Made by a program: the position numbers and the translations under genes. 44,042 bases of DNA from a virus. The notes beneath the pieces were generated by a model. The model searched no databases. It had not been told where the DNA came from and worked only from the letters and a program-made list of their open reading frames with translations. The DNA lies in IMG/VR virus record IMGVR_UViG_3300012205_000001, positions 1-44,042 of that record; one strand, written 5' to 3'. Numbering within the stretch: position 1 is the first letter of the stretch; the number at the start of each line of letters is the position of its first letter. Shown here one piece after another: positions 2,546 through 40,894 of the stretch.

Positions 2546-2577
2546 CGTCACCTGCCAGCAAAGCTGGGTCCTGTCAC
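2546..2577 (-). promoter_or_regulatory. Copy D of conserved 32-bp bipartite motif (GTGACA-N17-CAGGTGACG on minus strand) upstream of the lysis cassette
   Basis: Read directly; same length and spacing as copies at 6812..6843, 25473..25504 and 27706..27737. Confidence 0.4.
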
Positions 2578-4601
2578 GCGGTGAAGCTATCGGAGCGCCA
2601 GCGCACCAGAAAGCGCGTCTCCCATATTTCCCCACGCCGAAAAGTCGCCGCGCGGGTGCAGCCCTGGTAACGCACTTCGCTAATCCCACTCGTCGGCCAG
2701 GCGTAGCTGTCGGGGCGCTCCAGCACATCGCTGAATCGCTGCCCATCGCCCAGCGCATCGCGCATGACGGATTGCCGGTCACCGCCCCCCGCGTCGCCGC
2801 CGCCGCGCTGATACGCGACCCGAATGACGATCGTCGCCTCCCAATAGGCCTCCCCGATGGCCCGATTGCGCATCACGGGCGTGATGGCTTCGACGTCGGT
2901 GAAATAGTCGCCGTCCATCTTGCTGAGCGGCTCTTTGTCGAGTGTGAATCTGCAGCCGGACCGCAAACCGCCATCCGTAGAACTGGCCGACATGACAGCC
3001 GCCAGGCGGGCATCGATCTGAGTCAAGACGGCCGACAGGGGACAGAAGCGATTGTTGGTGGGCCCCGGCGTCACGCCGCCGCTGGTTGTGACGATCCCTG
3101 GACTGGCGGTCAGCCCGACGCCGCTGAGCGCCACCGCAAGCGACGGAACGATGCTGCCGGCCGCTGCGGTCGCGGCTGCGCCCGAGACGGCGACCGCTGT
3201 GCCGAACTGCAGGGTGCCGGCCAACGCGCTAGCCGCGTTGCCGGTGAGCGCCAGGGCCATCGCCAGTGCCACGCTGCCGACCCCGGCGGTCGCATTGCTC
3301 CCGACCGCCGGTACGTCGGTGGATGGCGTGACCGAGCCCGCCGAGGCAGTCGCCGCCTGGCCGGATAGTGCCACGGTGACATCCGAGCCGGCCGCGACCG
3401 TCGCGGCCCAATTGAGGGGGAAACGCGGCCGCCCGCCGATGGCCTGGGGTCGGCCGGGCCCGCGCAGAATAAACGGTACCGCTGCCGTGCGGCTGTCGGA
3501 GAGCAGGATCTGCGACCCAACATTACCGGCCGCCGTAGTGGCGGCCGCGCCCGTCAATGCGACATCGATGGCCGGCACCACCGTGCCGGCCGATACGGTC
3601 GCCCCCACGCCCGAGACCGGAACGGCCGTCGATGGTATGACGGTTCCGGCAGCGGCGGTTGACGCCTGGCCGGTCGCGGGGACATCGATCGCAATCGTGA
3701 CCGACCCTGCCGCCGTCGTGGCGGCCGAGCCCGTCAGTGCGACTGTGACGTCGCCCCCCGTCGGACTGGTCCATGTCAGGGGCTTAGCCGACGGCCCCAG
3801 GATGGGCATCGGCTTGCCGGGGCCACGCAGCAGGAAAGGTACCGCCATGGTGCGGGTGTCGAAGCCGGTGACCGGCGCGAAGAGATAGTTTTTTCGCGTC
3901 ATGGCCCGCATCAGGCGCGGCTTGGCGAGCGTCACATTTGGAACCGTCCGGATGATCGGTGCCCGCTCGCGAATGCTCAGGGTGCCGGTGTTGACGCCGA
4001 GGCCAGCGACCAGATCAACGCCGTTCAGATCATTGAGCGGATCGAGGAGGAGTGCATCATCACGGCGAATCTTGGTGAAGTCGGCGCCCCGGGCCAGCGC
4101 ATCGATCTCGTCCGGCCTGAGGCAGGTTCTCCACCAGCCGAATTGCTCTAACCAACAATCGGTCGTCGCGATCGTTGCATCAGTCCGCATCCAGAGCCGG
4201 ATATTGCTGGTCGTCGTCTGGCTGAAAGTACCGACCGGCGAACTGCTGGCCTGCTGTCGCCCGTCGATGTAGACGCGCATTGCCAGTGCGGCGCCGTCGT
4301 AGACCTGACAGACATGGATCCAATTCTTGTTCGTCCACTGAGCGGTCGTTGCCACCACCTGGCTACCGCTGCCGGTGATGACTTGCGCGCGGACGAGGTT
4401 GAATGCGCTGGCCGAGGGCGTGCCGACTGTAAAATCACCACTGACCGTCCCAACTCCGCGAGCGATGAATGCCCACTGAGCGACCGGCGTTATCTGAGGC
4501 TGGACCCAGATAGAGAGCGTATGGGACGTCGAGATGTCGAAGCGCCCATTGTTCGCATATTCGCGAAAGTTGGAACCGGAGGCGCCATTGTAGAGCGACA
4601 C
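2574..4601 (-). CDS. Tail fibre / receptor-binding protein: N-terminal LamG-like jellyroll domain, internally duplicated Ala/Thr/Gly/Val-rich shaft, C-terminal ~130-aa domain paralogous to gene 18515..19000
   Basis: N-terminus NKNWIHVCQVYDGAALAMRVYIDG resembles the LamG/concanavalin-like core. Two ~100-aa segments both begin AVPF(L/I)LRGPG. C-terminus aligns with the 18515 protein (FxLDKEP, VAYxRGGGDA, EVRYQG, GEIWExRF, WRSD). Starts at GTG. Confidence 0.6.
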   Translation of the reverse strand: MSLYNGASGSNFREYANNGRFDISTSHTLSIWVQPQITPVAQWAFIARGVGTVSGDFTVGTPSASAFNLVRAQVITGSGSQVVATTAQWTNKNWIHVCQVYDGAALAMRVYIDGRQQASSSPVGTFSQTTTSNIRLWMRTDATIATTDCWLEQFGWWRTCLRPDEIDALARGADFTKIRRDDALLLDPLNDLNGVDLVAGLGVNTGTLSIRERAPIIRTVPNVTLAKPRLMRAMTRKNYLFAPVTGFDTRTMAVPFLLRGPGKPMPILGPSAKPLTWTSPTGGDVTVALTGSAATTAAGSVTIAIDVPATGQASTAAAGTVIPSTAVPVSGVGATVSAGTVVPAIDVALTGAAATTAAGNVGSQILLSDSRTAAVPFILRGPGRPQAIGGRPRFPLNWAATVAAGSDVTVALSGQAATASAGSVTPSTDVPAVGSNATAGVGSVALAMALALTGNAASALAGTLQFGTAVAVSGAAATAAAGSIVPSLAVALSGVGLTASPGIVTTSGGVTPGPTNNRFCPLSAVLTQIDARLAAVMSASSTDGGLRSGCRFTLDKEPLSKMDGDYFTDVEAITPVMRNRAIGEAYWEATIVIRVAYQRGGGDAGGGDRQSVMRDALGDGQRFSDVLERPDSYAWPTSGISEVRYQGCTRAATFRRGEIWETRFLVRWRSDSFTA

Positions 4602-4613
4602 GCGCTCTCCCGC

Positions 4614-5090
4614 CTATTGCGCTTCCGGGTTATTCCCGATCCAGCGAAGCCAATGATTGGAACCGGTCGTATCGGTATTGACGGCAGTGTCATGATAGAA
4701 CATGACGCCGAAGCTGGGGCCGGGGTTCACGATGAACGCCTCGACATAAACCACGTCGCCCGTCGCTGGCGATGCCAGATTGCGCGCTACACCGATGAAT
4801 TCCGCATTGGCGCGTGTCAGCGCGCCGGCGGTCGCGGCGGCATTATCCGATCGGTGGGCCGTCCCGCCAGCATCACCGCGAATAGCATAGAGATAGAAGC
4901 CTTTGTTGCCGGTCGGTGAAGTGCCCTGCTTGAATTTTCCAAAGACGTGAATCAGAGAGTAACGCGTCACTGAATTATCGACCATGTCCGACTGTTGGCC
5001 AGCAAACGTCGTCGATGATGCGATATTCGCGATGGTGATCGTGAAGGCCGCGGATGCGGAGTATGTATCGAGGATGGCTGATTTTGCCAT
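4614..5090 (-). CDS. Hypothetical tail/fibre-associated protein (158 aa); same frame as the downstream fibre, separated by one TAG
   Basis: Track ORF. Both ORF starts are congruent mod 3, and only 4 sense codons lie between the TAG at 4614-4616 and the GTG at 4599-4601. Confidence 0.45.
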   Translation of the reverse strand: MAKSAILDTYSASAAFTITIANIASSTTFAGQQSDMVDNSVTRYSLIHVFGKFKQGTSPTGNKGFYLYAIRGDAGGTAHRSDNAAATAGALTRANAEFIGVARNLASPATGDVVYVEAFIVNPGPSFGVMFYHDTAVNTDTTGSNHWLRWIGNNPEAQ

Positions 5091-5534
5091 TTAGGTCGGC
5101 ACCCCCGTCGCGCGGCCCATGTCCCAAGTCGTAATCACAGTCCCGGTGCCGAATAAGATTTCGGCGCGACTCGCCGAGCGGTTGACGAATGCGATCAGAT
5201 TGGCGCGCGTGGTTGGCGCCGTGAGAGACGGAAACATGGCAAGAAAATTGGCCTGGACGGTCGCATTGCTGGCATCGATTTGCATGCAGGCCACATAAGA
5301 CATAAAAAGATTCTGGTTCGGTATTGATAGCAGAACGAACTCAGATTGAACGATTTGATTCATCAGCTGATAGCCGGCAATCACACCGGACCCAATCGTT
5401 TCGCTCGAACCACCGAGCGCGTTGATCAGCGCGACTCGTTGGGCGACGGTCTTGCCCGCATAGCCGAGCAGCTTCGGATCGTTGGTGATCTCGTTGCCGA
5501 GTGCCGTCAGCTGGCCGTTCGTGAGATCAGCCAT
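5091..5534 (-). CDS. Hypothetical tail module protein (147 aa)
   Basis: Track ORF, tightly packed with neighbours on the same strand; no motif recognised. Confidence 0.45.
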   Translation of the reverse strand: MADLTNGQLTALGNEITNDPKLLGYAGKTVAQRVALINALGGSSETIGSGVIAGYQLMNQIVQSEFVLLSIPNQNLFMSYVACMQIDASNATVQANFLAMFPSLTAPTTRANLIAFVNRSASRAEILFGTGTVITTWDMGRATGVPT

Positions 5535-5538
5535 CGCA

Positions 5539-6102
5539 TCAGTTGGGGCTAACGATCCTGAACTGATGGACCAGAATCGAATTGCTGGCGTTCGCGACCG
5601 ACCAGGTGCCGAACAGATCCACGACCGCAGATCCGGTGTTGTCGAAGCCGGTGCCGACGGCGGGGGCGCTGGCCGGGATGAGCAGGACGCCAGAGCCGCC
5701 GGTGCCGGGAACGGGCGAGCCGATGACCGCCTCCGAACTCCAGATTCCGGTATGCATCAGCGTGCAGGCCGTGCCACCGCCCACTGCACGACAGGTCAGG
5801 TCCCAATCGAGTTTCCAGGTCACGTTGGTTTTTGCCACGATGTTGAGCGCAAACGCGCCGCTGGTCGCTACAATGACCGAGCCGAACTTGAGATCGAATG
5901 TGAACGTCCCGGGCGTCGTGACGACCGTCGACATGCGGCCCGCCGCCTGGACCTTCAGCTCTTGGCCAATGGAGGAGAAGAAGCCGGGGAACAGCGTGAA
6001 TTTCGAGCCGGCATGCAGCAGACTGGTCGCCGTCGTGGTATTCGTGAGGGCGGCGCCATCGACCTGCGAGGTCCAGAGCGTTGAAGTGAATCCTTGCGAC
6101 AT
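5539..6102 (-). CDS. Hypothetical tail module protein (187 aa), Thr/Gly/Ser-rich
   Basis: Track ORF with beta-rich, fibre-like composition. Confidence 0.45.
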   Translation of the reverse strand: MSQGFTSTLWTSQVDGAALTNTTTATSLLHAGSKFTLFPGFFSSIGQELKVQAAGRMSTVVTTPGTFTFDLKFGSVIVATSGAFALNIVAKTNVTWKLDWDLTCRAVGGGTACTLMHTGIWSSEAVIGSPVPGTGGSGVLLIPASAPAVGTGFDNTGSAVVDLFGTWSVANASNSILVHQFRIVSPN

Positions 6103-6110
6103 GGGTTCTC

Positions 6111-6569
6111 CTATGCGATGCGAACGAGACCATTCGATGCGTCGTTGACCGGCATCGTGATCGTGAAGGTCCCGGCGGTGATCGTCTGACTGCCGAACGT
6201 GTAGACACCGATGGCCCGATTACTCTGCGTGCTGTTGTAGATCGTCACGCAATCGAACGCGGTCGTCAGCGTCACGGTCGTGTAGACGATGCTCGCGCTT
6301 GGCGTCCAGAATGCCGTTGTGCCGCTCGTCGTCGGCGCAGTTGCGTTCGTGACTGTGACGCCACCGGCCGAATATCCGGTGCCACTGACTTCGTTCGTTG
6401 CGCTGTAGGCCGTCGTCGCAGCGCCCTGGGTACCGGCGGTGGCGACATAGAGTGCCGCCTTCACGGTATCGGCGCCCGTGCCGCCACGCGTGACGGTCGT
6501 GCCCAGCGCGTGGAGTGCGGTCATCGCCTCGGACTTGAACGACGTGCAGATTGCCTGAACATTCGCCAT
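6111..6569 (-). CDS. Hypothetical tail module protein (152 aa), Thr/Ala/Gly-rich
   Basis: Track ORF; composition typical of fibre/baseplate proteins. Confidence 0.45.
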   Translation of the reverse strand: MANVQAICTSFKSEAMTALHALGTTVTRGGTGADTVKAALYVATAGTQGAATTAYSATNEVSGTGYSAGGVTVTNATAPTTSGTTAFWTPSASIVYTTVTLTTAFDCVTIYNSTQSNRAIGVYTFGSQTITAGTFTITMPVNDASNGLVRIA

Positions 6570-15205: not shown

Positions 15206-15540
15206 CAGTGCCGTCCCTTCGCCTTGCGCTTCTCGCTGTCATAATCATCGCGGGACCGCTTTTCTTTGAGCCAAATATGGACCAGGTCGATGGCCATGGG
15301 CGACAGCGTCTCGACGTTGCGCGAGCCGGATTCAATTTCGAATGCCCATTGTGAGACGAGCCGCGCCGGATGGATGCCACCGTCAATCAGATAGGGCGCC
15401 GGGAGGCCCATGCCGGCCGTGCGCAGATAGAAGGCCGGGCAATCGTCGAAGACCTCCTGCGAGCCCGGGATCGGATTCCAGGCGCCGTCAGGCCGCTTGG
15501 CGCTGATGTCCGGGCATGCCCATTGCCGTCGCATGCTCAC
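15205..15540 (-). CDS. Putative tail assembly chaperone, second ORF in the -1 frame (111 aa)
   Basis: Sits in the -1 frame relative to 15537..16199 and immediately before the tape measure protein, matching the conserved G/GT arrangement. Starts at GTG, overlapping the upstream stop (GTGA). Confidence 0.3.
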   Translation of the reverse strand: MSMRRQWACPDISAKRPDGAWNPIPGSQEVFDDCPAFYLRTAGMGLPAPYLIDGGIHPARLVSQWAFEIESGSRNVETLSPMAIDLVHIWLKEKRSRDDYDSEKRKAKGRH

Positions 15541-16199
15541 TGGACACCCGACGCAGCCTCCGGCGCGGGAGACGGCTCCATAATGGCCGTCGTGGACGCC
15601 GCCACCGATGATGGCGTCTGCGTGGACGGCGGCGATGATGCTTTTTTTACGGCGTCCTCTGGATAGGTGGCGCGGTAGATGAGGCCGCCATAGAAGGCGA
15701 CCATGCCGGGGTAGCGCGTTTCCAGATCGCTGATGAACTCAGGCGCCAGCATACGCACCCCACGCTCCTTGACCACACGCGGGTGTCGAATTTGGTCAGG
15801 CGTCTGAATCTCCTCGGGCTCGCCCGGGAAGTCGACGCCGATGCGGAAGCACACCAGCGTAGCCCTGCCCCAGCTTTCGACATTGTTGGCCGCCTCATAC
15901 CAGTAGGCTGAGGCCATGCGCGCTTCATCGGGCGTCAGATTGCGGAAGGTGATGATGCTGGCCTTGCCGGCGGATTCAAATGGGCGAAGGTGCATGGCCT
16001 CGCCGTCCTCACGCCAGCTGGCCAGTGCGGCGGCGCTGATATTCGCCAGTGCAGGATCCTCGCGCCAGATGCTCTCCCTGACCTCATGAGGCCTCCAACC
16101 GAAGCTAAGAGCCATCGCGCGCTCCCTTCGCCCACCCAGGCTTCGGGGTGGAAGAGGAAGGCGAGGGGGACGACGCGATGGCAGCAATCTGGGCGGCAA
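15537..16199 (-). CDS. Putative tail assembly chaperone (likely starts at internal MALSFGW)
   Basis: Track ORF; N-terminal 28 residues are Pro/Arg-rich and implausible. Position upstream of the tape measure protein. Confidence 0.3.
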   Translation of the reverse strand: MPPRLLPSRRPPRLPLPPRSLGGRRERAMALSFGWRPHEVRESIWREDPALANISAAALASWREDGEAMHLRPFESAGKASIITFRNLTPDEARMASAYWYEAANNVESWGRATLVCFRIGVDFPGEPEEIQTPDQIRHPRVVKERGVRMLAPEFISDLETRYPGMVAFYGGLIYRATYPEDAVKKASSPPSTQTPSSVAASTTAIMEPSPAPEAASGVQ

Positions 16200-16331: not shown

Positions 16332-17984
16332 TTACATCCATCCGACGTTGAAGCTGGGCAGCGTGGCGGCGAAGCTGTTGCCTCGGACGGCCTGCGGATG
16401 GATGGCCTGCCCATCGAGCGCGAACTCCCCTTGGCCGCCATTGTAGGTGAAGACCGCTTTGGTGAGCTGCAGGGCAGGCGCGCCGATGCAGAACGTCTCC
16501 TTCGGGTTGCCGCCCTTCTGGTAAAGGAAGTTCACCACGTCGCCGGCATGGAGGCGGTCAACCAGGTCCTTGAATGAGGCCAGATCGTCATTGTCGGCCA
16601 GGGCGGTAAAACTCATCGACACGGGCTCGACGTCCATCGCCATGCCGTCCATTTGATTGAATGCGTTCAGGCTTGGGCGTGGGATCGGCTTGAGACCGAA
16701 CATCACCTTCAGATCGCCGCAGATGACCTGTGTCCCGTCGATGCAGAGGCGGGCCCCCTTGCCGTCGACCGGCACCGTCGTGTCGAGCAGCGGAACCGGG
16801 AAGGAGGCCGACGTGATCGGATTGGTGATGTTGTATTCGATGCCCTCGGCAGCGACGTATTTCATCAGGAACTTGATCACCTGATCGCGTGCCACGTCGA
16901 GTTCGATGGTCGGCATGCAGCCATGGAAGACCTGTCGATAGAGCCCGCCGCGATAGAAGTCGAAGGTGCGGGTCCGGAAGTCGGTCGTCTTGAAACTGTA
17001 CCAGGCCGAAGCATAGATCGTGCTCGCCGCCGCCACCGACCCGGTCGTGATGACGCCGTTCTGCACGGTCAGTGTATTGGTGCTCTTGTTCAGCACCTGG
17101 AACGCCTCACCGGTGGCCAACAGGCCGAAGCCGCCGATGCTAAAGCCCGCCCCGCTGGCGGCGACGACCGTCGTTGCAGTCGAGCTGCTGACCGTCGAAC
17201 CGGTGTCGAGCGTCTCGGTCATGTGGTCGCCCAGAAGGCCGCCCATCTCCTGGGGCGGGACGGCGGCGGTGGCATTGCCGGCACTTGCCGTGAGCGGCCG
17301 CTGGGGCAGGATGATCTCCAGGGTCGATTCGGTGGTCACCGGCACGGCCGCGTCGGCGGCCTTCAGGCCCACAATTCGGCGCTGGACCACCTTGTGGGTC
17401 ATCGTCGCGGTGGCGGGCGCCTCCGGACGTAGCAGGGAGCGCAGCAGGTACAGCGCGCCGTCCCCGCCGGCCGCCGCCATGGTCGGCGTCGTGGTGAAGG
17501 TCCCGGTGCTGCTCAGAAAGCTCGCCACCTGATAGGCGCCGCCCGCATTCGTGCCGCCCTTGCCGACTAGGAACATGCCGCGATTCGTCGGAAAGCTGTC
17601 GGGCTCGTTCGTGATGCTCTGATGGGCCGAGCTGGTGACGGTTGTGGTCGTTGCCGTCGCAGTCGACCGCACAGGCACCTCGGCCGGCTGCCAGAGGGCC
17701 AACGTCGTCACGTTGGTGCCCGACGTCCAGGCGGCGTCGATCGTCGCCGTGGTCGTGCCGAGCACGAAGCTTTTGACCTGCCGCACCTGGCCGCGCGCGT
17801 CGCCATCCAGCGGCACGACGTAGTTGCCGATGCATGTGCTGGTCAGCGTCGCGCCGACGAATGTCGTCGTGGTGACCGATGAAGGGGTGATGGCGCGCGC
17901 CGTGGCCTCCTGGGAGGCTCTATACTGCGCCTCCGGGGCGGTCAGCAGTAGGTCGCGTGTTTGGATCCTTGGCTCGTTCGGCAT
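16332..17984 (-). CDS. Putative major tail protein (550 aa), Thr/Ala-rich
   Basis: Large structural-looking ORF directly upstream of the chaperone pair; assignment by gene order only. Confidence 0.35.
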   Translation of the reverse strand: MPNEPRIQTRDLLLTAPEAQYRASQEATARAITPSSVTTTTFVGATLTSTCIGNYVVPLDGDARGQVRQVKSFVLGTTTATIDAAWTSGTNVTTLALWQPAEVPVRSTATATTTTVTSSAHQSITNEPDSFPTNRGMFLVGKGGTNAGGAYQVASFLSSTGTFTTTPTMAAAGGDGALYLLRSLLRPEAPATATMTHKVVQRRIVGLKAADAAVPVTTESTLEIILPQRPLTASAGNATAAVPPQEMGGLLGDHMTETLDTGSTVSSSTATTVVAASGAGFSIGGFGLLATGEAFQVLNKSTNTLTVQNGVITTGSVAAASTIYASAWYSFKTTDFRTRTFDFYRGGLYRQVFHGCMPTIELDVARDQVIKFLMKYVAAEGIEYNITNPITSASFPVPLLDTTVPVDGKGARLCIDGTQVICGDLKVMFGLKPIPRPSLNAFNQMDGMAMDVEPVSMSFTALADNDDLASFKDLVDRLHAGDVVNFLYQKGGNPKETFCIGAPALQLTKAVFTYNGGQGEFALDGQAIHPQAVRGNSFAATLPSFNVGWM

Positions 17985-18044: not shown

Positions 18045-18518
18045 CTATCGAATCTTGTCCACCGTCACCCGGAGCCCGCCCAGAAGGTCATTGGTGGCCT
18101 TCAGGATTGGCGCGATGAAACCGTATTTTCGCTGCTTGTAGGCGGCGTAGGCCTTCGACAGGGGCGCGAAGGCGCCGCCGCTCTTGTCACGCTGCCGCTC
18201 GACGTTGTGGGCGATGGCCGCCAGCATGAGCTGGCCGATCGTGGTGATGGCCCGCTGGCGCACGCTGGCGTCCGCGCTGCCGAGCGCCTTGGCGACGAAT
18301 CGGATCGGCTCCATGTCATCGCGGTCGATGTACCAGGGCGAGCGCTTGAGGCCCGCCTGGACGCGCGCGATGACCGCGTTGCGCTCGGGGCCGCGCGCGC
18401 CGGTGGGGATGACCGAGATACGCGTGCCGTCGAGGGCCTGGCTGACCTTGGCGGCTTTCAGCTTGACTGCCTGGGCAATCTGGTCGCCGATGCCCTGAAG
18501 TTCAGCGCCCGCGCTCAT
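18045..18518 (-). CDS. Hypothetical head-tail joining region protein (about 157 aa from internal MSAGAELQ)
   Basis: Track ORF 18045..18665; the internal Met at 18516-18518 overlaps the upstream stop and removes an implausible N-terminus. Confidence 0.4.
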   Translation of the reverse strand: MSAGAELQGIGDQIAQAVKLKAAKVSQALDGTRISVIPTGARGPERNAVIARVQAGLKRSPWYIDRDDMEPIRFVAKALGSADASVRQRAITTIGQLMLAAIAHNVERQRDKSGGAFAPLSKAYAAYKQRKYGFIAPILKATNDLLGGLRVTVDKIR

Positions 18519-19000
18519 GACGTCATCACGTCCGAGCGCCACTGCGCCCAGAAGCGGTGCTCCCAGATTTCGCCCTTGCCGCGGTCCAGGATGCGCCGGC
18601 TGCCCTGATAGCGGACCTCGCGGATGCCGCTGGTCGCCGTAAAGTAGTTCGCCGGCAGGTCGCACACGTCGGCGATGTGCATGCCGTCGTCACCGGCGTG
18701 GCGCAGGGTGGCGATCCTGTCGTCGGCCGCCGCGTCGCCCCCGCCCCTGAAGTAGGCGACGTTCACCGCCACGGTGGCCGCCGTGATGTTCTCGACGGTG
18801 CCGTAACGCCGCTCATGCGGGTCGACGCCCAGCACGTCGACGAAGTAACGGCCGTCCAAGGCGCTGTCAGGCTCCTTGTCCAGCTCGAAGCGGTAGCCGC
18901 TGGGCACGAGCTTGCCGTCGATGGAGCTGGCGCCCATGATCAGCGCAAGATTCACGTGGAACGTTGCCAGCACGGCGGCCGGCAGGAAGGTGCTCATGCG
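18515..19000 (-). CDS. Hypothetical structural protein carrying the ~130-aa domain shared with the tail fibre C-terminus
   Basis: Track ORF 18515..19192, likely starting at internal MSTFLPAAV near 19000. Shares FELDKEP, VAYFRGGGDA, GIREVRYQG, GEIWEHRFW and WRSD blocks with the C-terminus of 2574..4601. Confidence 0.45.
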   Translation of the reverse strand, partial: RMSTFLPAAVLATFHVNLALIMGASSIDGKLVPSGYRFELDKEPDSALDGRYFVDVLGVDPHERRYGTVENITAATVAVNVAYFRGGGDAAADDRIATLRHAGDDGMHIADVCDLPANYFTATSGIREVRYQGSRRILDRGKGEIWEHRFWAQWRSDVMTS

Positions 19001-19857
19001 CGCTCCAGGCGGCCGACCGTGAATCCAACGTCGTTGCCGCCAGACGTGATTCCGTCTTGGTCGGCGTCGATGGGCAGGTTGGCGATGATCTCGGTCTTGC
19101 GCTTGTCGTACTCGGCTTCCAGCTTGTCCATTTGGGCCGACCATTCGTCGCCGAACGAATACCGGCGTAGCAACCAGAACTTCAGCGCGCACTGGCGACG
19201 CAACTCGGCGAAGCCAAGAAACGCATGCGCCCGGTTCTTCCCACCGAGGTCCAGCAGCGTCTCATCGCGCGCTTCGCGCAGGGCGGCGACCATGTCGGTT
19301 TCGGCATCCAGGTTCAGGCCCAATTTCGGGAAAACCAGGCGCAAATCTGACTCATCGCACAGGAAGTCTGGAATCTTGGTCAAATAGCACTCAACTGCTT
19401 CGGTCAGCGTGTCGCCGGCGGGCGGCGTGAAGGTCGCCCATCCATTGGTCCAGACCGCATCGGCCTGGGTGCTGGTGACGGCATAGCTGACGCGCGTCCC
19501 GCGGAAGGTCGCGCCCGACACATGCGCCACACCGAGCGGCGCCCAAAGCGTACAGGTGCTGGCCGTCAGGCTCTTGACCGTGACGACTTCGTCGGCCTCG
19601 GTACCGTTCGGGCCGCCGAGGCGATACCGCCGACCGACCACGATGCTGGTGGCGCTCGTTACATCGACAGTCCTGGCCCGCGCAGCGGCGGCACCAGACA
19701 ACGTGGTATTGACCGTATCGACGACCGCGGCGGCGGAGCTAACCTTAAGCGCGCCGGTCGATGAATAGACGCTGACCATACAGGACGCGGGCTGCCGATC
19801 AAGAAACTGCGTCTCGACTGTGCCACCGATGCCCTTGACCAGTGTTTGGAATGCCAC
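18994..19857 (-). CDS. Hypothetical structural protein (287 aa)
   Basis: Track ORF in the head-tail module; no motif recognised. Confidence 0.45.
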   Translation of the reverse strand: MAFQTLVKGIGGTVETQFLDRQPASCMVSVYSSTGALKVSSAAAVVDTVNTTLSGAAAARARTVDVTSATSIVVGRRYRLGGPNGTEADEVVTVKSLTASTCTLWAPLGVAHVSGATFRGTRVSYAVTSTQADAVWTNGWATFTPPAGDTLTEAVECYLTKIPDFLCDESDLRLVFPKLGLNLDAETDMVAALREARDETLLDLGGKNRAHAFLGFAELRRQCALKFWLLRRYSFGDEWSAQMDKLEAEYDKRKTEIIANLPIDADQDGITSGGNDVGFTVGRLERA

Positions 19858-19860
19858 GAC

Positions 19861-20319
19861 TCACTCAGTGGGGAACCCGATGAAGGTGCTGACCGTCGGC
19901 GCGGTGCCGGACGGGACCAGAGAGCGGGTGACGAAGCGGCTGAAGTTGTCGCCCGAGACGTTGAAGGCCTCGGTGCTCAGGACGCGCAGAGCACTGACCT
20001 GCGAGCCGCCCGCGCCGGTGGCGGCGATGGGCTGCCCCTTGTTCATGGCGCCCACCCACAGCCAGCGCGGCGAACTGGCAAATACGCCTTGGTCGGCGTA
20101 GCCCAACAGGTCGATGCGGCAGGAGACCGCACCCACCGTGTCGGCGTAATCCACGGCCACCCAGATGCGGTTGGCCGCCATGAGCGGGGCCACGCCGCCG
20201 GTCATGATGTCAGACAGCGCCTTGCCGGCCGCGCCACCAGACGGATAGGCGGTCGTGGTCGTTGAAGCGTTCAGGTCCTGGACCCAGCGGATCCCGCCTT
20301 CTGCGGTTTGGTACCCCAT
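19861..20319 (-). CDS. Hypothetical structural protein (152 aa)
   Basis: Track ORF; start abuts the stop of the upstream glycosyltransferase-like gene. Confidence 0.45.
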   Translation of the reverse strand: MGYQTAEGGIRWVQDLNASTTTTAYPSGGAAGKALSDIMTGGVAPLMAANRIWVAVDYADTVGAVSCRIDLLGYADQGVFASSPRWLWVGAMNKGQPIAATGAGGSQVSALRVLSTEAFNVSGDNFSRFVTRSLVPSGTAPTVSTFIGFPTE

Positions 20320-21152
20320 TACGCGGCCTCTTTGCGCTCGGCCTTGGCCTGCGCGTCAGCGAGCAGTTGCGGCACATGGTCCAGCGCCACGAACCCGTTG
20401 ATATAACGGACCTCGGTCGCGCCGACGGCGCCGCGCAGAGCGGCGGCCTGTTCCTTGAGCGTCGGCGAATCGTCCTTCCAGCTGTCTTCCCAGTGCTGCC
20501 AAGAGAAGGTAAGTGGACCAGTGTCCTTCATGTGCACGGTGCGAAAGCGCGGGTCGGCCAGCACCTTGAAGCCGGCCGCGCGCAGCCGCGTGCAGAAATC
20601 GTAGTCTTCGCCCACCTCGGACACGCTGCCGGTGAACGTTCGCTTGATGGCGAAGCGAAACCAGGGCAGGTCGTCGCGCGTGGCCTTGAGCGCCGAGACG
20701 CGGATCATCATGAAGCCCGTCGCCACCGTCGCTACTTCGACCGGCTGGAACGGAAAGCCGCTGATGACATGGCAGCACTCCTCCGGGTGCTCCTCATGCG
20801 CCACGGTCACCGTGGGGACCATGGGGCGCTCGCGCAGGTAGACCGCGCCGATCGCGCCCACCTCGGGATGCTGATCGAACAGCGCGTGCCAGACATCCAG
20901 CGGGTTGCCGCCGGGCCCGCCCGCCTCAATCCATAGATCATCATCATGCATGACCAGAAAGTCGTACCCGTCGTTGACCGCCTGGTCGGCGATTCGAGTG
21001 CGCGCCATCTGCACCGGGCCACACGTGAACGCGAAGCTGTCCCGGCCACGCTCGAACGTGCGGCAGCCCATCTCCATGTCGCGCATGCTTTTGACGTACG
21101 CGAGGGTTGGGTGTCGCCCGCTCGGCGTGGCGTAGAACAGCCGGTCGGCCAT
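20319..21152 (-). CDS. Glycosyltransferase-like protein (GT-A fold, DxD) embedded in the head-tail module
   Basis: DFLVMHDDDLWIE (DxD-type motif) and GEDYDFCTRLRAAGFKV, reminiscent of family-2 glycosyltransferases. Lies between capsid-proximal and tail genes on the same strand. Confidence 0.5.
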   Translation of the reverse strand: MADRLFYATPSGRHPTLAYVKSMRDMEMGCRTFERGRDSFAFTCGPVQMARTRIADQAVNDGYDFLVMHDDDLWIEAGGPGGNPLDVWHALFDQHPEVGAIGAVYLRERPMVPTVTVAHEEHPEECCHVISGFPFQPVEVATVATGFMMIRVSALKATRDDLPWFRFAIKRTFTGSVSEVGEDYDFCTRLRAAGFKVLADPRFRTVHMKDTGPLTFSWQHWEDSWKDDSPTLKEQAAALRGAVGATEVRYINGFVALDHVPQLLADAQAKAERKEAA

Positions 21153-22134: not shown

Positions 22135-23082
22135 CTATGTGGCGGAGTAGCCGGTGATCTTCCAAAAATGCTTCGGGTTATCCGCGCCGATCCCGAACGC
22201 CATGGTGATAAGCCATTTGTCCGAGTCGTCGGTCTTGCCCAACAGGTCGACCTTCATCTGCCGGCGCCATGACATGAACAGATCGCCCGTCTGGACGCCG
22301 AGAAAGATGCTGTTATCCAGGTCGCGGATCGGCGTCAGTGGCCGCCCGGCATAGGTGATGCCGGAGCTGTTGCCCTGCAGGTCGATGCTGTTGTTGCCCG
22401 ACATGATGCGGATCGAATTGTTTGCCGAGCCGGCCAGGCCGATGGCACCGCGCGCCTTCTGGATCTGCTTCGGCGACACCCATACCTGGTCGTAGCTGGA
22501 CGCATAGTCCGCGTCGCGGCTGAACCGGTCGGCGGCGTCGATGTCGGCCAGGGTCACCGTGGTACCGCTGCCCGTGGTCTCATATGCCTGAAACCAGGTA
22601 TAGGTGTTGCGGTCCAGGCCAGCGATGGTGCCGGCGCTGTCGCAGATGCCCTGGATGCCCACCGGCGACACCAGGCCCGTGCCAAGCGCGTCCGTGGATG
22701 CCAGGTCGATGACGTCGGCCATGCCCTTTTCGAACTCCTGGGCGAACTGGTCGAAGAACGCGGCCTGCGGATTGCCGTTGTTCAAAGTGTCGCGGGCGTG
22801 GCCCGTGATCTGAACGACGACCTTGTAGTAGGTGAATGGCCACTGCGCCGTGACGTATGACTGCGAGCCGGGAGCGCCCGCCGCGTCACCCTCGACGTAT
22901 CGGGTGACCGACGTGTTCTTCCCGTACTGCATCTTCCGGTTGAGCGTTGTGCCGCCGGTGTCGGGGCGCAGATTGAAGCGCCCGAGTACCTCACTATTGC
23001 GGAACGTGGTGTCGACCAGCCCGGCGATCGCCTGGGTTTTGGTCGCCGCGTCGATGGAACTAGCTGCCGTTACGCCTGCCAT
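22135..23082 (-). CDS. Putative major capsid protein (315 aa)
   Basis: Position immediately downstream of the scaffolding-like gene, with size typical of HK97-fold capsid proteins; by gene order only. Confidence 0.45.
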   Translation of the reverse strand: MAGVTAASSIDAATKTQAIAGLVDTTFRNSEVLGRFNLRPDTGGTTLNRKMQYGKNTSVTRYVEGDAAGAPGSQSYVTAQWPFTYYKVVVQITGHARDTLNNGNPQAAFFDQFAQEFEKGMADVIDLASTDALGTGLVSPVGIQGICDSAGTIAGLDRNTYTWFQAYETTGSGTTVTLADIDAADRFSRDADYASSYDQVWVSPKQIQKARGAIGLAGSANNSIRIMSGNNSIDLQGNSSGITYAGRPLTPIRDLDNSIFLGVQTGDLFMSWRRQMKVDLLGKTDDSDKWLITMAFGIGADNPKHFWKITGYSAT

Positions 23083-28073: not shown

Positions 28074-28282
28074 AGGCGGCCCATCAGCATGCGCGCCGGC
28101 GGCCGGATGCAGATGTCGCTCACGGCCCGATGCGCGACTCCCATGCTGCGCTCGACCTTTTCGTCGCTCGTCATGGCGCCATGCTGGACCACAACCTTGA
28201 CGTGTCCGTGGTGCTGGCAGTCAGGGCAGGCCCAGGGCAAGAACCATTCGATCGGGCCCTTTTGCGGCATGGTGCCTACCAC
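27971..28282 (-). CDS. Hypothetical small protein with Cys/His cluster (103 aa)
   Basis: PWACPDCQHHGHVKVV suggests a metal-binding motif; stop/start is close to the upstream glycosyltransferase. Confidence 0.35.
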   Translation of the reverse strand: MVGTMPQKGPIEWFLPWACPDCQHHGHVKVVVQHGAMTSDEKVERSMGVAHRAVSDICIRPPARMLMGRLWRFELGRPIWMLKKGETQETFHPEKWPPWGKTN

Positions 28283-29148
28283 GGGATTTCACCAAAGCGA
28301 CTCAGCATCTGTCGGTGCTCCTCCTCGCTCTGCTGGCGCGCGCCAAGGTCGCCCTGAATCATCGCCATCCCGCCGGCGGGATTGGTGGTCCGGATAACGA
28401 GTGGCTCACGGTCGCCAGAATTGACGATAACTGAATGCCGAGAGATATTCTGCAGCCAGCCATGGCGGACGGTCAATGGTTGGCCATAAAAGTAAACCAC
28501 GGGCGCGTCCTCGTCTACTAGGTGCGCGCGCTTCACGCCGTGCTTGTTCGCGCGCCCCAGCCATTCGGTGTCGACGTGGAATCGAAATCCCTCGTCCATC
28601 GGGCCGATCTCGTCCCATACGGCGCGATGCATGAGCCAGCCCGACGGCGTGGCGAAGTCATTGACGCGCTGGAAGTTGCCGGCCACGTCGACCTCGCGCT
28701 GATTACTGGTCACCATGTCGACGCGGGAGAGCCACGGGATTTGTGCAGCCAGCTTTTCGGGGCACCAGATGTCATCGTCTTCCAGGAACGCCAGCACGTC
28801 GCCGGTGGATGCGCGCACAGCGGCATTGACGGCGGCAGCTTGGCCGCCCGCGCCAGCGAATACCTGCGTAACGCCCTTGAAGCGCTCAGGTAGCAGCCCT
28901 GTGTTCAGCTGATCGCGAAAGGCTTGCATACCCATCGTCGCTGCCGCGATCGGATTGGCTGCGTTGACCTTTATCGGCGAATCCATTCCCACGACGAATT
29001 CAATTTCATGTTCGCCCGCGGCCGACTGCCGGTGCACCGACATCAGCGCGCGGTCGAGATAGAGATTCCCAGTCTCGCTCATAGGATTGACCTGCAAGCG
29101 ACTAGGTGTAATGACGCTGATTTTCACCGGCACACATCCGGAATCCAA
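28276..29148 (-). CDS. Family-2-type glycosyltransferase (GT-A fold)
   Basis: N-terminal ISVITPS, then GQAAAVNAAVRASTGDVLAFLEDDDIW (nucleotide-sugar binding region with DxD-type EDDD), typical of GT2 enzymes. Confidence 0.65.
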   Translation of the reverse strand: MDSGCVPVKISVITPSRLQVNPMSETGNLYLDRALMSVHRQSAAGEHEIEFVVGMDSPIKVNAANPIAAATMGMQAFRDQLNTGLLPERFKGVTQVFAGAGGQAAAVNAAVRASTGDVLAFLEDDDIWCPEKLAAQIPWLSRVDMVTSNQREVDVAGNFQRVNDFATPSGWLMHRAVWDEIGPMDEGFRFHVDTEWLGRANKHGVKRAHLVDEDAPVVYFYGQPLTVRHGWLQNISRHSVIVNSGDREPLVIRTTNPAGGMAMIQGDLGARQQSEEEHRQMLSRFGEIPW

Positions 29149-29422: not shown

Positions 29423-30868
29423 TCATCGCTGCCGCTCCAGTTCTTCGACGTACGGTCGATAGATAATCTCTCCCTGCCGCTTGGTCACTTGGTATTCGGG
29501 CCGCGTGATGACCGTGTGGCCATCGGCCAATTCGCGGTATCCCGAATAGTGAAAAGCCACGAGCGAGCGGTTGCCGAAGTACGGAACGCCGCCCCGGACA
29601 TCAAGCGCGCGGCCATGGATCGCCCACGGGCCAAGGTTTGCTCCTGGAGCCATAACCACATGCGCGCCATGCTTTTCCGGCCACGCGTCAAGGTATTTTT
29701 GGTCGCCATAACGCAACTGCCTTTCGGGAATTGGGACCTGCTCCACACGGTCATAACACCACTCTCGGCATTGCGCCGCCCACTCTTCGACAATCTCACG
29801 ATTCGCGATATAGACGAGGCCCACATTGTATTTTCCAAATACCTCATGCGTCTCAACTGTCGGCCCCGGTAACCCGTGCGATGCGCTGGCGAAGTTGTGC
29901 GGGAACACTGCCGCAGGTGCGGCGCCAATTTCTGCAAAGACTGGCTCTGGCGATGAATGGAACATTATGTCAGCATCGACGTAACAGACGGGACGGCCGG
30001 TCGACTTCATGACCTCTGCGATCCACCACGGACCGAGCGTCCACATCGTCTCGACCCTGGTGCGTTCCGGTCCAGGCAGGATGCCGATCGTGCCCGGCAG
30101 CTGCGTCGGGCATCCAACTGATTCTGCCCAATCACGCACGCCTTCGTCCCACGACAGAATATGCAACTCGAACGGCTGGCAGTGTCGCAGCATTGAGGCG
30201 TGGAGCGCCTTGAGGCGAGTGAGATAATTGCTATCGGCATATGTGGCGTAGACGCGCGGCCGCGCACAGACATAGGTCGTCGATCCACCGTCAGCTCGGA
30301 AAAAATCGCGACCTTGGAATCCAGTCTCCGCCATCGCGGCCATGAGGTCCATATGATTGACGTCCCAGGCCCGGAACGTCTGCCCGTAGCCATGCGTCTC
30401 GGTGCGTTTTGTCGCTATCGCCAGCGGCACACGATGAAGAATCACCCAGCGTCGCGACCGCGCGCATAGATCGGCAAGATGTATCTTCCAGTCGTCGGCA
30501 TGCATGAGGGCGCAGCCGTCGATCACGACGTCAAACGAACTCGGCAATCCGCATAAATCAAATGGCGGACGATCATGGCTGGCGAAGCAAACGAATTCGC
30601 TCTCCGGGTATCGCTCGAGCGCAACCTTGATCGCCGCTGGGCTGATGTCACAGCCGCCATAGCTTCGATATGCTATCCCCTGCCGATCCAGGACCTCACG
30701 GTTGTACCCGCTCGCGCAGCCGACCTCCCATAGCTCGCCGGGGCATTGCGTGGAGCGCACCGCATCGGCCAGGGCGCGAAACTGGATCGGCAGCGGGTCT
30801 TGCTGCAGCTGCTGATCTACCAGTTCACGCTGGGCGGCGGCGATCTCAGGCAGCATCCAGGGGTTCAC
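29423..30868 (-). CDS. Two-domain protein: N-terminal class I SAM-dependent methyltransferase-like, C-terminal nucleotide-sugar transferase-like
   Basis: LWEVGCASGYN (glycine-rich motif I-like) and DVVIDGCALMH in the N-terminal half; CYVDADIMF (DxD-like) in the C-terminal half. Confidence 0.5.
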   Translation of the reverse strand: MNPWMLPEIAAAQRELVDQQLQQDPLPIQFRALADAVRSTQCPGELWEVGCASGYNREVLDRQGIAYRSYGGCDISPAAIKVALERYPESEFVCFASHDRPPFDLCGLPSSFDVVIDGCALMHADDWKIHLADLCARSRRWVILHRVPLAIATKRTETHGYGQTFRAWDVNHMDLMAAMAETGFQGRDFFRADGGSTTYVCARPRVYATYADSNYLTRLKALHASMLRHCQPFELHILSWDEGVRDWAESVGCPTQLPGTIGILPGPERTRVETMWTLGPWWIAEVMKSTGRPVCYVDADIMFHSSPEPVFAEIGAAPAAVFPHNFASASHGLPGPTVETHEVFGKYNVGLVYIANREIVEEWAAQCREWCYDRVEQVPIPERQLRYGDQKYLDAWPEKHGAHVVMAPGANLGPWAIHGRALDVRGGVPYFGNRSLVAFHYSGYRELADGHTVITRPEYQVTKRQGEIIYRPYVEELERQR

Positions 30869-31872
30869 AAACTCCTCGCCAGCTCGACGAGCCGCGGAAT
30901 GCGCGATTCATAGGTGTGCGCGAGCAGAACATCTTGGGCCGCCTTCTCATCATCACCATAAGCGGCCTTCATGATCCAATCGCGCGCGTGCGCGGCGCTG
31001 ACAAACTCATTCGGCCCCCACCAGAATTGATCGATGAAAGCTTCGCCATCGCTCACCGGCTCAGCTCCCATCCCGGCCGCTTCATAGAGTCGCATGGCAT
31101 TCGCCGCGCCCTTCGTCCATTCGGCATGGACGTTAAAGACGGTCCTTGCTCGCGCCAGCGTTTTGAAATATTCGCGCCCAAATACCGGCGGCATCACGGT
31201 GACGATATCTTTCAGCTCCTCCAGCAACTGCGTCCGGCGTACGTGGTTAGGCCCGACGGTCCCGACAAAGATGCAGGCTAAGTCACGCTGGACGCCCATG
31301 CCGCAGGCCCGCGCACGGGTATCGAACGCGAGTGGCATATATTCACCCCGACAGCCCTTCGCATGCGCTTCGTCGATCATCCAGGGAATCGATGAGATGA
31401 CCAGGTCATAGGCGGGCGATCCATCGCGCTTGCGGACATCCCATGGCATCGGATTGCAGATGGCGGCAACCTGGGCGATCCGCTTGCCCTGCCCCTTTAT
31501 CGGCATCCCATAATTGTCGAGCACGAAGGCGACGCAGTCAGGCCCATCGATCTCAAGCGCAAACGCGCCGCCCGATACATTCACTGAGGTCGCATCCTCG
31601 CCGAACTCCCGCAGATAGTGCGAATAGCTATCCAGGTGTGAGCAGAAGAACGCCTCGTGGCAATAGAGCGAATCGGCAACTAGCCATCTCATCGCGTCCT
31701 CACGAATGTCCACGCATCGGAATATGCTTCGGGCATCGCCTCGTCTCGAATGCCGAAAAACATCCGCTGCGAGTCGGCACTCGCAAAGCCGATGCATTGC
31801 CTCGCAGCGCCGTTGATTATGACGGCGGCATTTAGATGCCGACCATCGTGGTCGAGTTCGCCGGTGATCCAA
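30865..31872 (-). CDS. Glycosyltransferase-like protein (GT-B/CgeB-like C-terminal region); likely starts at internal Met near 31692
   Basis: ACIFVGTVGPNHVRRTQLLEELKDI and NAMRLYEAAGMGA resemble the C-terminal domain of group-1-type glycosyltransferases. N-terminal 60 residues are Arg/Cys-rich and overlap the upstream gene. Confidence 0.4.
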   Translation of the reverse strand: MDHRRTRPRWSASKCRRHNQRRCEAMHRLCECRLAADVFRHSRRGDARSIFRCVDIREDAMRWLVADSLYCHEAFFCSHLDSYSHYLREFGEDATSVNVSGGAFALEIDGPDCVAFVLDNYGMPIKGQGKRIAQVAAICNPMPWDVRKRDGSPAYDLVISSIPWMIDEAHAKGCRGEYMPLAFDTRARACGMGVQRDLACIFVGTVGPNHVRRTQLLEELKDIVTVMPPVFGREYFKTLARARTVFNVHAEWTKGAANAMRLYEAAGMGAEPVSDGEAFIDQFWWGPNEFVSAAHARDWIMKAAYGDDEKAAQDVLLAHTYESRIPRLVELARSL

Positions 31873-34202: not shown

Positions 34203-34267
34203 GTCCCAGACAGTCTCAGACGATTACACGATTGGTGTCAACCGAAATCGCTGCGTCATCCCGCCAC

Positions 34268-35290
34268 CTAGCAGAAGAGCCCACGCTGCGCGGTCCGCGC
34301 GCGCGCCAGCTGCGCGTACTCGGGCGAAAGCTCGATGAGGATCCACTGCCGGCCGAGCGCCTCGGAGACCTGGCCGACGGTACCGCTGCCGCCGAACGGA
34401 TCGAGCACGATGCCGCCGGCGGGGCAGCCGGCGAGAATGCAGGTCTCGACCAGCTTGCGCGGAAAAGTCGCGAAGTGGGCGCCGCCGTAGGGCTCGGTTG
34501 CGATCGTCCAGACGGATCGCTTATTGCGCTCGTCGACCAGACCAGCGATGGCCCCCGAGAAGGAGGCGTTCTGCTTGACGCGGAAGCCGGCGCCGCGCCC
34601 GAACCGCGTCGACGGCTTGAGGCCCTGATCGTCTCGCCCTTCGTCCTTGGGGCCGGCCTTGGGGTTGACGCCGTCGCCGCGCGGATGAGCTCTGCCCGTG
34701 ACCGGCTCCTTGATCGCCGCAGCGTCGTAATAGTACCGCTCGCTCTTCGACAACAGGAACACGAACTCGTGCGCCTTCGTCGGACGATCGGTCACCGCCT
34801 CGGGCATCTGGTTTGGCTTCGACCAGATGATGTCGCAGCGCAGGTACCAGCCATCGGCCTGCAGCGCGAAGGCGACGCGCCAGGGAATGCCGACCATGTC
34901 CTTCGGCTTGAGGCCGTGGATCGGTATGCGGTTCGGCTGGGTCATCGGGCCCATGGCCGCCATCGCCGTGTGCTTGCCGGCGTGCGATCCGTCGCGCAGG
35001 GCCCGCGTCTTCTTGCGCAGGATCGCCGCGCCGGTTGCGTAGCAGTCGCCGAGGTTCAACCAGAGCGTACCGTCTGGGCGCAGCGCGCGCCGCACCTCGC
35101 GGAACACCGCCACCAGCTCGGCCATATACTCCTCGGGCGTCGCCTCGAGTCCGATCTGGTCGGCCACGCCGTAGTCGCGCAGGCCCCAGTACGGCGGGCT
35201 CGTTACCACGCAGTGGATCGAGTCGTCTGGGATCTCGCGCAGCAGAGCACGGCAGTCGCCGACGTGGATCTCGCGGGTGGCCAGCGTCAC
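34268..35290 (-). CDS. DNA methyltransferase (N6-adenine or N4-cytosine, beta-class amino-methyltransferase)
   Basis: Catalytic motif TSPPYW near the N-terminus and SAM-binding DPFGGSGT near the C-terminus, the order typical of beta-class enzymes. Confidence 0.85.
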   Translation of the reverse strand: MTLATREIHVGDCRALLREIPDDSIHCVVTSPPYWGLRDYGVADQIGLEATPEEYMAELVAVFREVRRALRPDGTLWLNLGDCYATGAAILRKKTRALRDGSHAGKHTAMAAMGPMTQPNRIPIHGLKPKDMVGIPWRVAFALQADGWYLRCDIIWSKPNQMPEAVTDRPTKAHEFVFLLSKSERYYYDAAAIKEPVTGRAHPRGDGVNPKAGPKDEGRDDQGLKPSTRFGRGAGFRVKQNASFSGAIAGLVDERNKRSVWTIATEPYGGAHFATFPRKLVETCILAGCPAGGIVLDPFGGSGTVGQVSEALGRQWILIELSPEYAQLARARTAQRGLFC

Positions 35291-35434
35291 GCGGCGCGCT
35301 CCGCGGGCCGAAGTCGCGTCATCGCGTCGATCTCCACAGTTCCCGCGCCGCCCAGTCGACGAGCCCGGCGAACGCGAGAATCGTGCACGCGCCGACGAAT
35401 AGGAGAGCGAGGAACGGGATGGGGGCGCGGGTGG

Positions 35435-36331
35435 TCAAGCCCGCATCTCCAGAAGTTCTTTCAGGATCGCCGCGATCTTTGGCCAGTATTTTTCATCCGA
35501 CGCGGCCATAGCGGCCCGATCGGCCCGAGCGGCCCGAGCGGCCCGAGCGGCCAGAGCGGCCCGATCGGCCAGAGCGGCCAGATCGGCCAGAGCGGCCCGA
35601 GCGGCCCGAGCGGCCCGATCGGCCCGAGCGGCCAGAGCGGCCAGATCGGCCAGAGCGGCCCGATCGGCCAGAGCGGCCCGAGCGGCCAGAGCGGCCCGAG
35701 CGGCCCGAGCGGCCCGAGCGGCCCGATCGGCCCGAGCGGCCAGAGCGGCCAGATCGGCCAGAGCGGCCCGATCGGCCAGAGCGGCCCGAGCGGCCCGAGC
35801 GGCCCGAGCGGCCAGATCGGCCAGAGCGGCCCGAGCGGCCAGAGCGGCCAGAGCGGCCAGAGCGGCCAGAGCGGCCCGAGCGGCCCGAGCGGCCAGAGGA
35901 GGATGCTTTCGAAGCTCTCCTGCCAACCGCGACAGTTCTCGCGTGTGTTCACTGTCGCCGTCGCAAAGCGCAACCGTCGCATCGATCGCATCGGGTAGGA
36001 TCTCGCGCAGGCCCCAGTCAACGAGACGGACCGCGCGCTTCTCCTCGATCTCATCCGTCGACCGAGAGAACAGCAGCGCTGGCCCGAACTCTGGCGCGAG
36101 ATGCTTTCTCCAAGCCGCGCTCGCGTCCTGAATGCCGACAGTGAACCCATGTAGGACCTGCGAGGCCGTCTCTGGACACGAATACAACCTCGGGTCGAGG
36201 TCGACCCATGCGCGGAATTCCTGCCATGCGCAACGGTCACCAGGCTTACCCGTGCCGCAACCCGCGCGCAGATTCAGCGAGTCAAGATACTCGGGAGTCA
36301 CGTAAGCTGGTAGCTTCTGGATCTCGGTCAT
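35435..36331 (-). CDS. Hypothetical protein with a tripeptide repeat tract A-(A/D)-(R/L) of about 130 aa
   Basis: N-terminal non-repetitive domain (MTEIQKLPAYVTPEYLDSLNLRAGCGTGKPGDRCAWQEF), then AARAALAALAALAAL...ADRAAMAAS encoded by the 9-bp repeat array, then a short C-terminal tail. Confidence 0.5.
   Translation of the reverse strand: MTEIQKLPAYVTPEYLDSLNLRAGCGTGKPGDRCAWQEFRAWVDLDPRLYSCPETASQVLHGFTVGIQDASAAWRKHLAPEFGPALLFSRSTDEIEEKRAVRLVDWGLREILPDAIDATVALCDGDSEHTRELSRLAGELRKHPPLAARAARAALAALAALAALAARAALADLAARAARAARAALADRAALADLAALAARADRAARAARAARAALAARAALADRAALADLAALAARADRAARAARAALADLAALADRAALAARAARAARADRAAMAASDEKYWPKIAAILKELLEMRA
35500..35897. repeat. 9-bp tandem repeat array (about 44 units; variants cggcccgag, cggcccgat, cggccagag, cggccagat)
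   Basis: Read directly from 35500-35897; in-frame within the gene 35435..36331. Confidence 0.85.
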
Positions 36332-40489: not shown

Positions 40490-40491
40490 GA

Positions 40492-40761: not shown

Positions 40762-40894
40762 AGCGACCGTTTAGCGCCCGCCAGACCGCCATGCACATCG
40801 CAGCGGAAATAGGTGTCGCTGCAATACGGGCAGCAGACGCATGACGTGTTGGGCGAGCAGGGCTTCTTTATGCTGCCCTTGTTACAGGGGCGCA

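Follow-up and report, generated by a model that had tools for sequence, protein, structure and literature searches.

The stretch analysed, hereafter the window, comprises 44,042 nucleotides of viral DNA (IMG/VR virus record IMGVR_UViG_3300012205_000001, positions 1 to 44,042). Two of its proteins share a domain of about 160 amino acids (aa). One is a free-standing 160-aa protein of the neck gene cluster, which on the basis of its predicted fold and synteny is the phage's tail terminator. The other is a 675-aa fibre-like protein, in which a second copy of the domain forms the C-terminal end, behind a lectin-like domain and a region of short repeats. This second copy is an old paralogue of the terminator, and the conservation gradient along the fibre-like protein and the composition of related proteins suggest that it may fix the fibre to the virion, with the neck as the most likely site. 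The fibre, the terminator and their neighbouring genes are all encoded on the minus strand. The main features are:

18515..18997, minus strand: predicted tail terminator (gpU-like fold), free-standing copy of the domain, 160 aa, assigned by predicted fold and synteny
2574..4601, minus strand: 675-aa fibre-like protein with lectin-like domain, repeats and terminator-like domain; GTG start preceded by GGGAGA
4104..4553, minus strand: Laminin_G_3 domain (Pfam PF13385; concanavalin A-like lectin/glucanase) at the fibre N-terminus, aa 17-166
3078..3866, minus strand: two internally duplicated blocks of the fibre, each with an AVPFxLRGPG segment and four or five 20-aa repeats (xxDVxxTGxxATxxAGxVxP)
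2577..3077, minus strand: C-terminal terminator-like domain of the fibre, the second copy, aa 509-675

An old intragenomic duplication

Comparison by BLASTP of the 675-aa open reading frame (ORF; 2574..4601) with the ORF at 18515..19192 revealed 80 identities in 168 positions (48%) with 2 gaps and an E value of 2e-40 under compositional adjustment, the aligned part of the fibre corresponding to residues 509-675. A sequence-only reading of the window had proposed that a domain is present twice in the genome through duplication, once in the fibre and once in a head-tail region protein with a gene of its own. This duplication proved to be genuine, as all five motif blocks on which it had been based were found (FELDKEP/FTLDKEP, VAYFRGGGDA/VAYQRGGGDA, EVRYQG, GEIWEHRF/GEIWETRF, and WRSD). 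The extent of the shared unit, however, had been underestimated at ~130 aa, since it measures about 160 aa, and its limit in the fibre gene, set at about 2990, has to be moved to about 3077. Likewise, the neck gene had been placed at 18515..19000, but its start is the ATG at 18997, which gives a product of 160 aa.

With a G+C content of 62% in the genome and a fibre rich in Ala, Gly, and Thr, the similarity might have been attributed to composition or chance between two GC-rich, Ala/Gly-rich ORFs. This explanation is refuted by the composition-adjusted BLASTP result together with a shuffle test, in which the Smith-Waterman score of 336 contrasted with 29.8 +/- 5.0 in 500 shuffles (maximum 55; z = 61). 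Moreover, the alignment falls outside the low-complexity repeats of the fibre, and independent metagenomes yield the same family. The pairwise alignment that had been suggested as a check thus places the similarity far beyond compositional bias.

At the nucleotide level, the two copies of the domain are 55% identical and their longest exact match is 10 nt, indicating that the duplication is old and neither a recent event nor an assembly artefact. The 55% identity also rules out a recent duplication or gene conversion. A six-frame profile search of the window detected exactly two copies of the domain.

The 160-aa neck protein as a predicted tail terminator

Searches based on sequence families were empty. 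The 160-aa protein matched no model in Pfam, PHROGs, or NCBIfam, 61 diverse family members gave no Pfam terminator hit with E <= 1, and profile searches of the PDB with 19 and 61 sequences matched no PDB terminator. It was only by fold search that the domain could be identified. An AlphaFold2 model of the domain obtained with 19 sequences (pLDDT 83.9, pTM 0.81) shows the element order helix, two strands, long helix, two strands, and its alpha/beta fold, with four antiparallel strands packed on helices, is superimposable on solved terminators according to Foldseek. Known proteins of this class are lambda gpU, T5 p142, SPP1 gp17, the Mu terminator, the terminator of RcGTA, and the cap proteins of pyocins and PVC. 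Proteins annotated as actinophage terminators rank among the top hits in predicted viral structures (BFVD), a hint that the host may belong to the Actinobacteria.

Gene context points in the same direction. The 160-aa gene belongs to the head-tail joining genes: the capsid gene lies on one side of it, and the genes of the 550-aa candidate tail protein and of the tape-measure-like protein lie on the other, as expected of a terminator gene. The fibre copy, at the far end of the tail module, does not occupy such a position. The closest neighbours are:

18994..19857, minus strand: 287-aa conserved neck-region protein, directly upstream of the terminator and coupled to it by an ATGA overlap
18045..18518, minus strand: 157-aa Phage_tail_S-like protein (PHROG 26, 'tail completion or Neck1'), encoded by the next gene after the terminator, to which it is translationally coupled
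16332..17984, minus strand: 550-aa conserved protein encoded after the neck cluster; by synteny, a candidate for either the major tail protein or the sheath
15537..16115, minus strand: 192-aa protein located after the 550-aa protein

The start codon of the 160-aa gene forms the ATGA overlap with the stop of the upstream gene, its own stop lies in a second overlap, with the start of the 157-aa gene, and all 11 database homologues of its product begin with a common MSxxLP. Counterparts of the 287-aa protein, with 282-295 aa, are found at the same place in relatives, and a Phage_tail_S-like gene also follows immediately after the terminator in L001, L002, L003, L005, L006, L016, and L017. The gene order from capsid to tape measure is common to seven related metagenome contigs. 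Therefore, on the basis of predicted fold and synteny, and not of sequence membership in a curated terminator family, of which there is none, the 160-aa protein is assigned as the tail terminator of the phage and adds to the terminator fold class a new member that is an orphan at the sequence level.

This assignment bears on the two functions that had been suggested for the shared domain. A carbohydrate-binding unit is not supported, as the domain has the predicted alpha/beta fold of a terminator, which rules out its identity as a carbohydrate-binding module (CBM), it matches no CBM or lectin family, and the lectin-like candidate is situated at the opposite end of the fibre. In contrast, a shared attachment or adaptor module is favoured by the terminator fold and by the fact that the domain is the most conserved part of the fibre.

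Architecture and conservation of the fibre-like protein

The N-terminal match of the fibre to PF13385 (E = 2.8e-12) reaches 47.5 bits against a gathering cutoff of 27.6, and the same family was also recorded for P0018 and for the fibre of L017. Between this domain and the terminator-like end, the two duplicated blocks are 45% identical to each other (E = 2e-25), and their 20-aa repeats, predicted as strands, follow a strict 20-residue spacing. These repeats matched no known repeat family, and a DNA tandem-repeat search of the fibre gene gave nothing useful, the repeats being visible at the protein level only.

Conservation among orthologues differs strongly along the protein. Whereas the terminator-like domain of the fibre is 67-76% identical, a value similar to that of the neck terminators of the same phages (71-73%), identity drops to 42-67% in the repeat region and to 8-63% in the LamG end, which is effectively swapped. 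Both terminator paralogues evolve at the same rate. The combination of a conserved C-terminal end and a variable N-terminal end is the signature of an anchor and a host-facing tip; the LamG end is the variable and presumably host-facing part of the fibre and, judging from the domain match, may bind sugars.

The same gradient weighs against the idea that the C-terminal domain is not an anchor at all and acts instead as an oligomerisation or folding (intramolecular chaperone) module, or is a functionless remnant of a fusion. C-terminal chaperone and oligomerisation domains are common in phage fibres, which lends this idea some plausibility. Purified terminators, moreover, self-assemble into hexamers (PMC11784142). 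Nevertheless, the domain is the best conserved part of the fibre, as strongly conserved as the essential neck terminator, five orthologues have kept it, and so has the permuted P0035, at its N-terminus, and scans of the fibre against Pfam, PHROG, and NCBIfam detected neither an autoproteolysis motif nor a chaperone family. A role other than anchoring is thus considered highly improbable.

In the relatives, the genes for the fibre orthologues P0018, P0027, and L017:18802-20910 close the tail module, with the lysis genes next, as in the window. They share a further feature with the window:

4614..6569, minus strand: four small genes (products of 152, 187, 147, and 158 aa), which always precede the fibre gene in relatives

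This block is conserved in L004, L007, L008, and L017. No informative Pfam or other family match and no PDB match was obtained for any of the four products, the sole match being to PHROG 644, of unknown function; they may be partners of the fibre or factors required for its assembly. In L017, reverse-strand genes and a CHAP gene separate the four small genes from the main tail module.

Family members in related phages

A profile search of 1.8 billion representative proteins recovered only about 105 clusters belonging to the domain family. No relatives of the lineage were found in INPHARED (tblastn and blastn), in IMG/VR, or in GTDB genomes; those available come only from soil, rhizosphere, and other metagenome assemblies, and the phage is uncultured. 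The arrangement of the window is also found in L017, whose neck terminator is 72% identical to that of the window. This contig encodes both a plain 160-aa neck terminator and a 702-aa fibre with the order LamG, repeats, terminator, which shows that the two-copy arrangement is old and has been maintained. Within each two-copy genome, the paralogues are 48-53% identical, and a neighbour-joining tree places the fibre-type domains in a single clade, whose sister clade holds the neck-position proteins.

Several relatives carry additional modules on the terminator itself. In 16 clusters, the domain is N-terminal and is followed by 80-560 extra residues, and wherever the context is available, the gene encoding the extended protein is the neck-position gene itself. 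P0029 (672 aa, L006:4432-6450) is a neck-position terminator with a C-terminal Lipase_GDSL_2 domain (GDSL/SGNH esterase; E about 1e-10), and GDSL domains are also present in P0031 and P0022, an arrangement that would apparently place a glycan-modifying enzyme on the neck ring. The extension of P0020 (644 aa), another neck-position terminator, belongs to no recognised family, and P0014 (298 aa) also occupies the neck position, as does P0015, in which the extension is N-terminal. Conversely, P0035 (L018:4090-5376), which belongs to the fibre-type clade and is found at the fibre position, has the domain at its N-terminus and a LamG-like region at its C-terminus, the reverse of the order in the window fibre, and this LamG-like region resembles one in the neck-type P0029. 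Taken together, these arrangements indicate that the fold accepts cargo at either end and that like cargo is found on both paralogue types.

A distant member of the family, P0062 (567 aa), has the domain in the middle of the protein (about 329-485), preceded by a long repetitive N-terminal region rich in Ala, Leu, and Thr and followed by a C-terminal tail of ~80 aa.

A terminator paralogue as a putative fibre anchor

The label of receptor-binding tail fibre given to the 675-aa protein is an assumption, and the protein may sit at the tail tip or at the neck. According to the model that we favour, with moderate confidence and with the neck as the preferred site, the last ~165 residues of the fibre, an old terminator paralogue, would serve as a conserved virion-anchoring module. 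By homology, a terminator-type ring on the tail tube, probably at the neck, would be built from this domain or would take it up, and the repeat shaft and the variable LamG domain would project outward as ancillary binders of the host surface. The polarity of such a fibre would be the reverse of the usual one, with the anchor at the C-terminus and the binder at the N-terminus. The neck is the likeliest site because relatives place fused modules on the neck-position terminator.

Several observations weigh against this model. The terminator assignment was reached through predicted fold and synteny, with no match at the sequence level to Pfam or PDB terminators. The full-length model of the fibre, built from 4 sequences, has a pLDDT of 33 and was not used for fold searching, although its C-terminal predicted secondary structure still repeats the terminator pattern. 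The four small genes always accompany the fibre gene. In addition, about 14 kb separate the fibre gene from the neck genes; it is grouped with distal-tail genes and adjoins the lysis cassette, as is usual for tail-tip fibres. Finally, 16 type-specific substitutions between the paralogues cluster in hairpin loops (44-45, 61-72, and 137-138). In the T5 terminator p142, loop 63-67 contacts the tube (PMC11784142); if the 61-72 cluster corresponds to this loop, the fibre copy may bind a different partner, which would be consistent with a second ring or with a tail-tip location.

These last two observations, namely the gene position at the end of the tail module and the concentration of substitutions in loops that perhaps include the T5-type tube-contact loop, favour a scenario in which the same fold anchors the protein at the distal end of the tail, as a Dit-like ring around or below the tube at the tip, the protein being a true tail-tip side fibre. 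The lactococcal neck passage structure (NPS) provides a precedent, since its ring domain is homologous to a baseplate protein and works at another site of the virion, implying that homology does not fix location. However, no terminator-fold ring at the tail tip appeared among the structural matches, and to our knowledge none has been described at a tail tip; moreover, it is the neck-position terminator that carries comparable modules in relatives, including a LamG-like region. A distal ring is consequently regarded as unlikely.

Another scenario concerns stoichiometry: the fibre copy could replace some of the subunits of the ordinary terminator hexamer, so that only a fraction of the positions would bear a fibre. 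In favour of such a mixed ring, both paralogue types have the same residue at 52 of the 160 positions, among them the invariant RGGGD..DR loop and the C-terminal strands, and they evolve at equal rates. Partial decoration of a tail ring also has a precedent in 936 group phages, where a fraction of the major tail proteins bears the TpeX extension with its CBM. On the other hand, the limited identity between the paralogues of each genome (48-53%, as given above) and the conserved loop residues that each type has of its own argue for distinct contacts, making subunit replacement rather improbable.

A broader reading, in which the neck terminator ring of the lineage is a general display platform for host-surface modules, is put forward more tentatively than the anchor model. 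In some genomes, GDSL esterases or other domains are fused to the terminator directly; others would combine a plain terminator with a paralogous terminator domain that bears lectin-tipped fibres and either makes up a ring of its own or is incorporated into the first one.

Other genes of the window

Upstream of the terminator and the 287-aa protein, the region contains a gene for an SU10-type (SU10_MCP-like) major capsid protein (22135..23082), several genes without assignment, and a GT2-like gene. Downstream, the 550-aa protein had no sequence match in Pfam, PHROG, NCBIfam, or PDB, profile searches included, and it is followed by small, chaperone-like ORFs of 78, 192, and 111 aa and by a 661-aa tape-measure-like protein. 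No homologue of the 192-aa protein was found in Pfam, PHROGs, NCBIfam, or PDB sequences.

The 550-aa protein contains Thr-rich tracts, and the 192-aa protein has a tail rich in Ser, Pro, and Thr. Three glycosyltransferase-like genes (20319..21152, 28276..29148, and 30865..31872) and a methyltransferase gene (29423..30868) are present in the window, all on the minus strand, and the GT2-like gene is embedded between the capsid and neck genes, where it is kept in relatives. The co-occurrence of glycosyltransferase-like genes and Thr/Ser-rich tail proteins raises the possibility of virion protein glycosylation, suggested by gene content and amino acid composition.

Elsewhere, a gene at 34232..35998, on the plus strand and thus opposite to nearly all other genes, encodes a 588-aa protein with collagen triple-helix repeats (Pfam Collagen, E = 3e-18). 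A 388-aa pentapeptide-repeat protein (41107..42273, minus strand; Pfam Pentapeptide, E = 8e-58) is encoded in the replication/early region, near AAA_24 (38214..39212) and PD-(D/E)XK nuclease (39665..40798) genes.

Implications

Tail terminators are usually treated as small, invariant plumbing of the neck. The present data assign a predicted fold and a probable role to an orphan, unannotated family of about 105 clusters. That virion ring proteins can act as scaffolds for host-binding modules is already known; the novelty would lie in the terminator fold performing that role. If this proves true, the terminator fold would represent a new type of anchor by which receptor-binding proteins could be recognised in phage genomes, a relevant point considering that fibre annotation normally seeks conserved N-terminal anchors and the anchor proposed here is C-terminal. 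It would also offer a predictable handle for engineering, since modules could be exchanged on an anchor of 160 aa that accepts them at its N- or C-terminus, and a natural system in which to study the way a site in a symmetric assembly is shared or divided among paralogous ring subunits. Should the terminator ring in fact be a display platform, this would be a new mode of attachment for neck fibres and virion enzymes, and paralogous ring subunits would set the copy number of the appendages. The pattern is clean and testable, the fibre being placed at the neck by inference.

Comparison with known systems

Terminators form hexameric rings on the tail tube, and purified ones crystallise as hexamers; larger terminators with additional domains have been documented, and Pvc16 possesses a second terminator-fold domain (PMC11784142). 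The family described here differs from known terminators in that it has no match at the sequence level to Pfam or PDB terminators, in that a second copy is fused C-terminally to a lectin-plus-repeat fibre of 500 aa encoded 14 kb away, and in that the terminator of relatives bears a GDSL esterase or other extensions of 80-560 aa. In a literature search that was not exhaustive and did not have LamG or lectin among its terms, neither a terminator paralogue acting as a fibre anchor nor a fusion of a terminator with a GDSL esterase was found.

Like the fibre gene of the window, the NPS gene closes the tail module and precedes the lysis genes. In the NPS of lactococcal 936 and P335 siphophages (e.g., TP901-1), a conserved anchor that forms a ring is likewise combined with a shaft and with distal modules that can be exchanged, and this anchor has a homologue among the ring proteins at another site of the virion (PMC6669499). 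The NPS modules are CBM, beta-helix, or carbohydrate-esterase-like, whereas those found here are LamG, GDSL esterase, or of no recognised family (PMC6669499). The fibre thus shares with the NPS a conserved, in its case putative, anchor, exchangeable modules of presumed glycan function, and a gene at the end of the tail module. However, the NPS anchor is an N-terminal BppU-like beta-sandwich and its shaft a trimeric coiled coil, whereas the fibre has Laminin_G_3 at its N-terminus, a shaft of 20-aa beta-type repeats, and a terminator fold that is usually C-terminal. The two systems have no sequence relationship, and the neck location, shown for the NPS by electron microscopy, is for the fibre a proposal based on homology and context. 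The fibre is consequently an analogue of the NPS and not a member of this group.

Myophage collar and whisker systems, such as T4 fibritin, XM1 gp40, and the collar and whiskers of Bas63, are also fibrous appendages of the head-tail junction, with proposed roles in sensing, attachment, and stabilisation, but they are anchored via coiled coils or via Ig-like collar rings on adaptor or head-completion proteins, and not through a terminator paralogue. By analogy, the fibre would work like a collar or neck-passage fibre, yet with neither a BppU-like or Ig-like anchor nor a coiled coil. The same principle, a tail ring protein that displays glycan-binding modules in cis or on a subset of its subunits, is followed by 'evolved' Dit proteins and by the major-tail-protein extensions (TpeX). 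In comparison with them, the scaffold in the lineage described here would be the terminator, at another position of the tail, and one version of it is encoded by a separate, paralogous gene.
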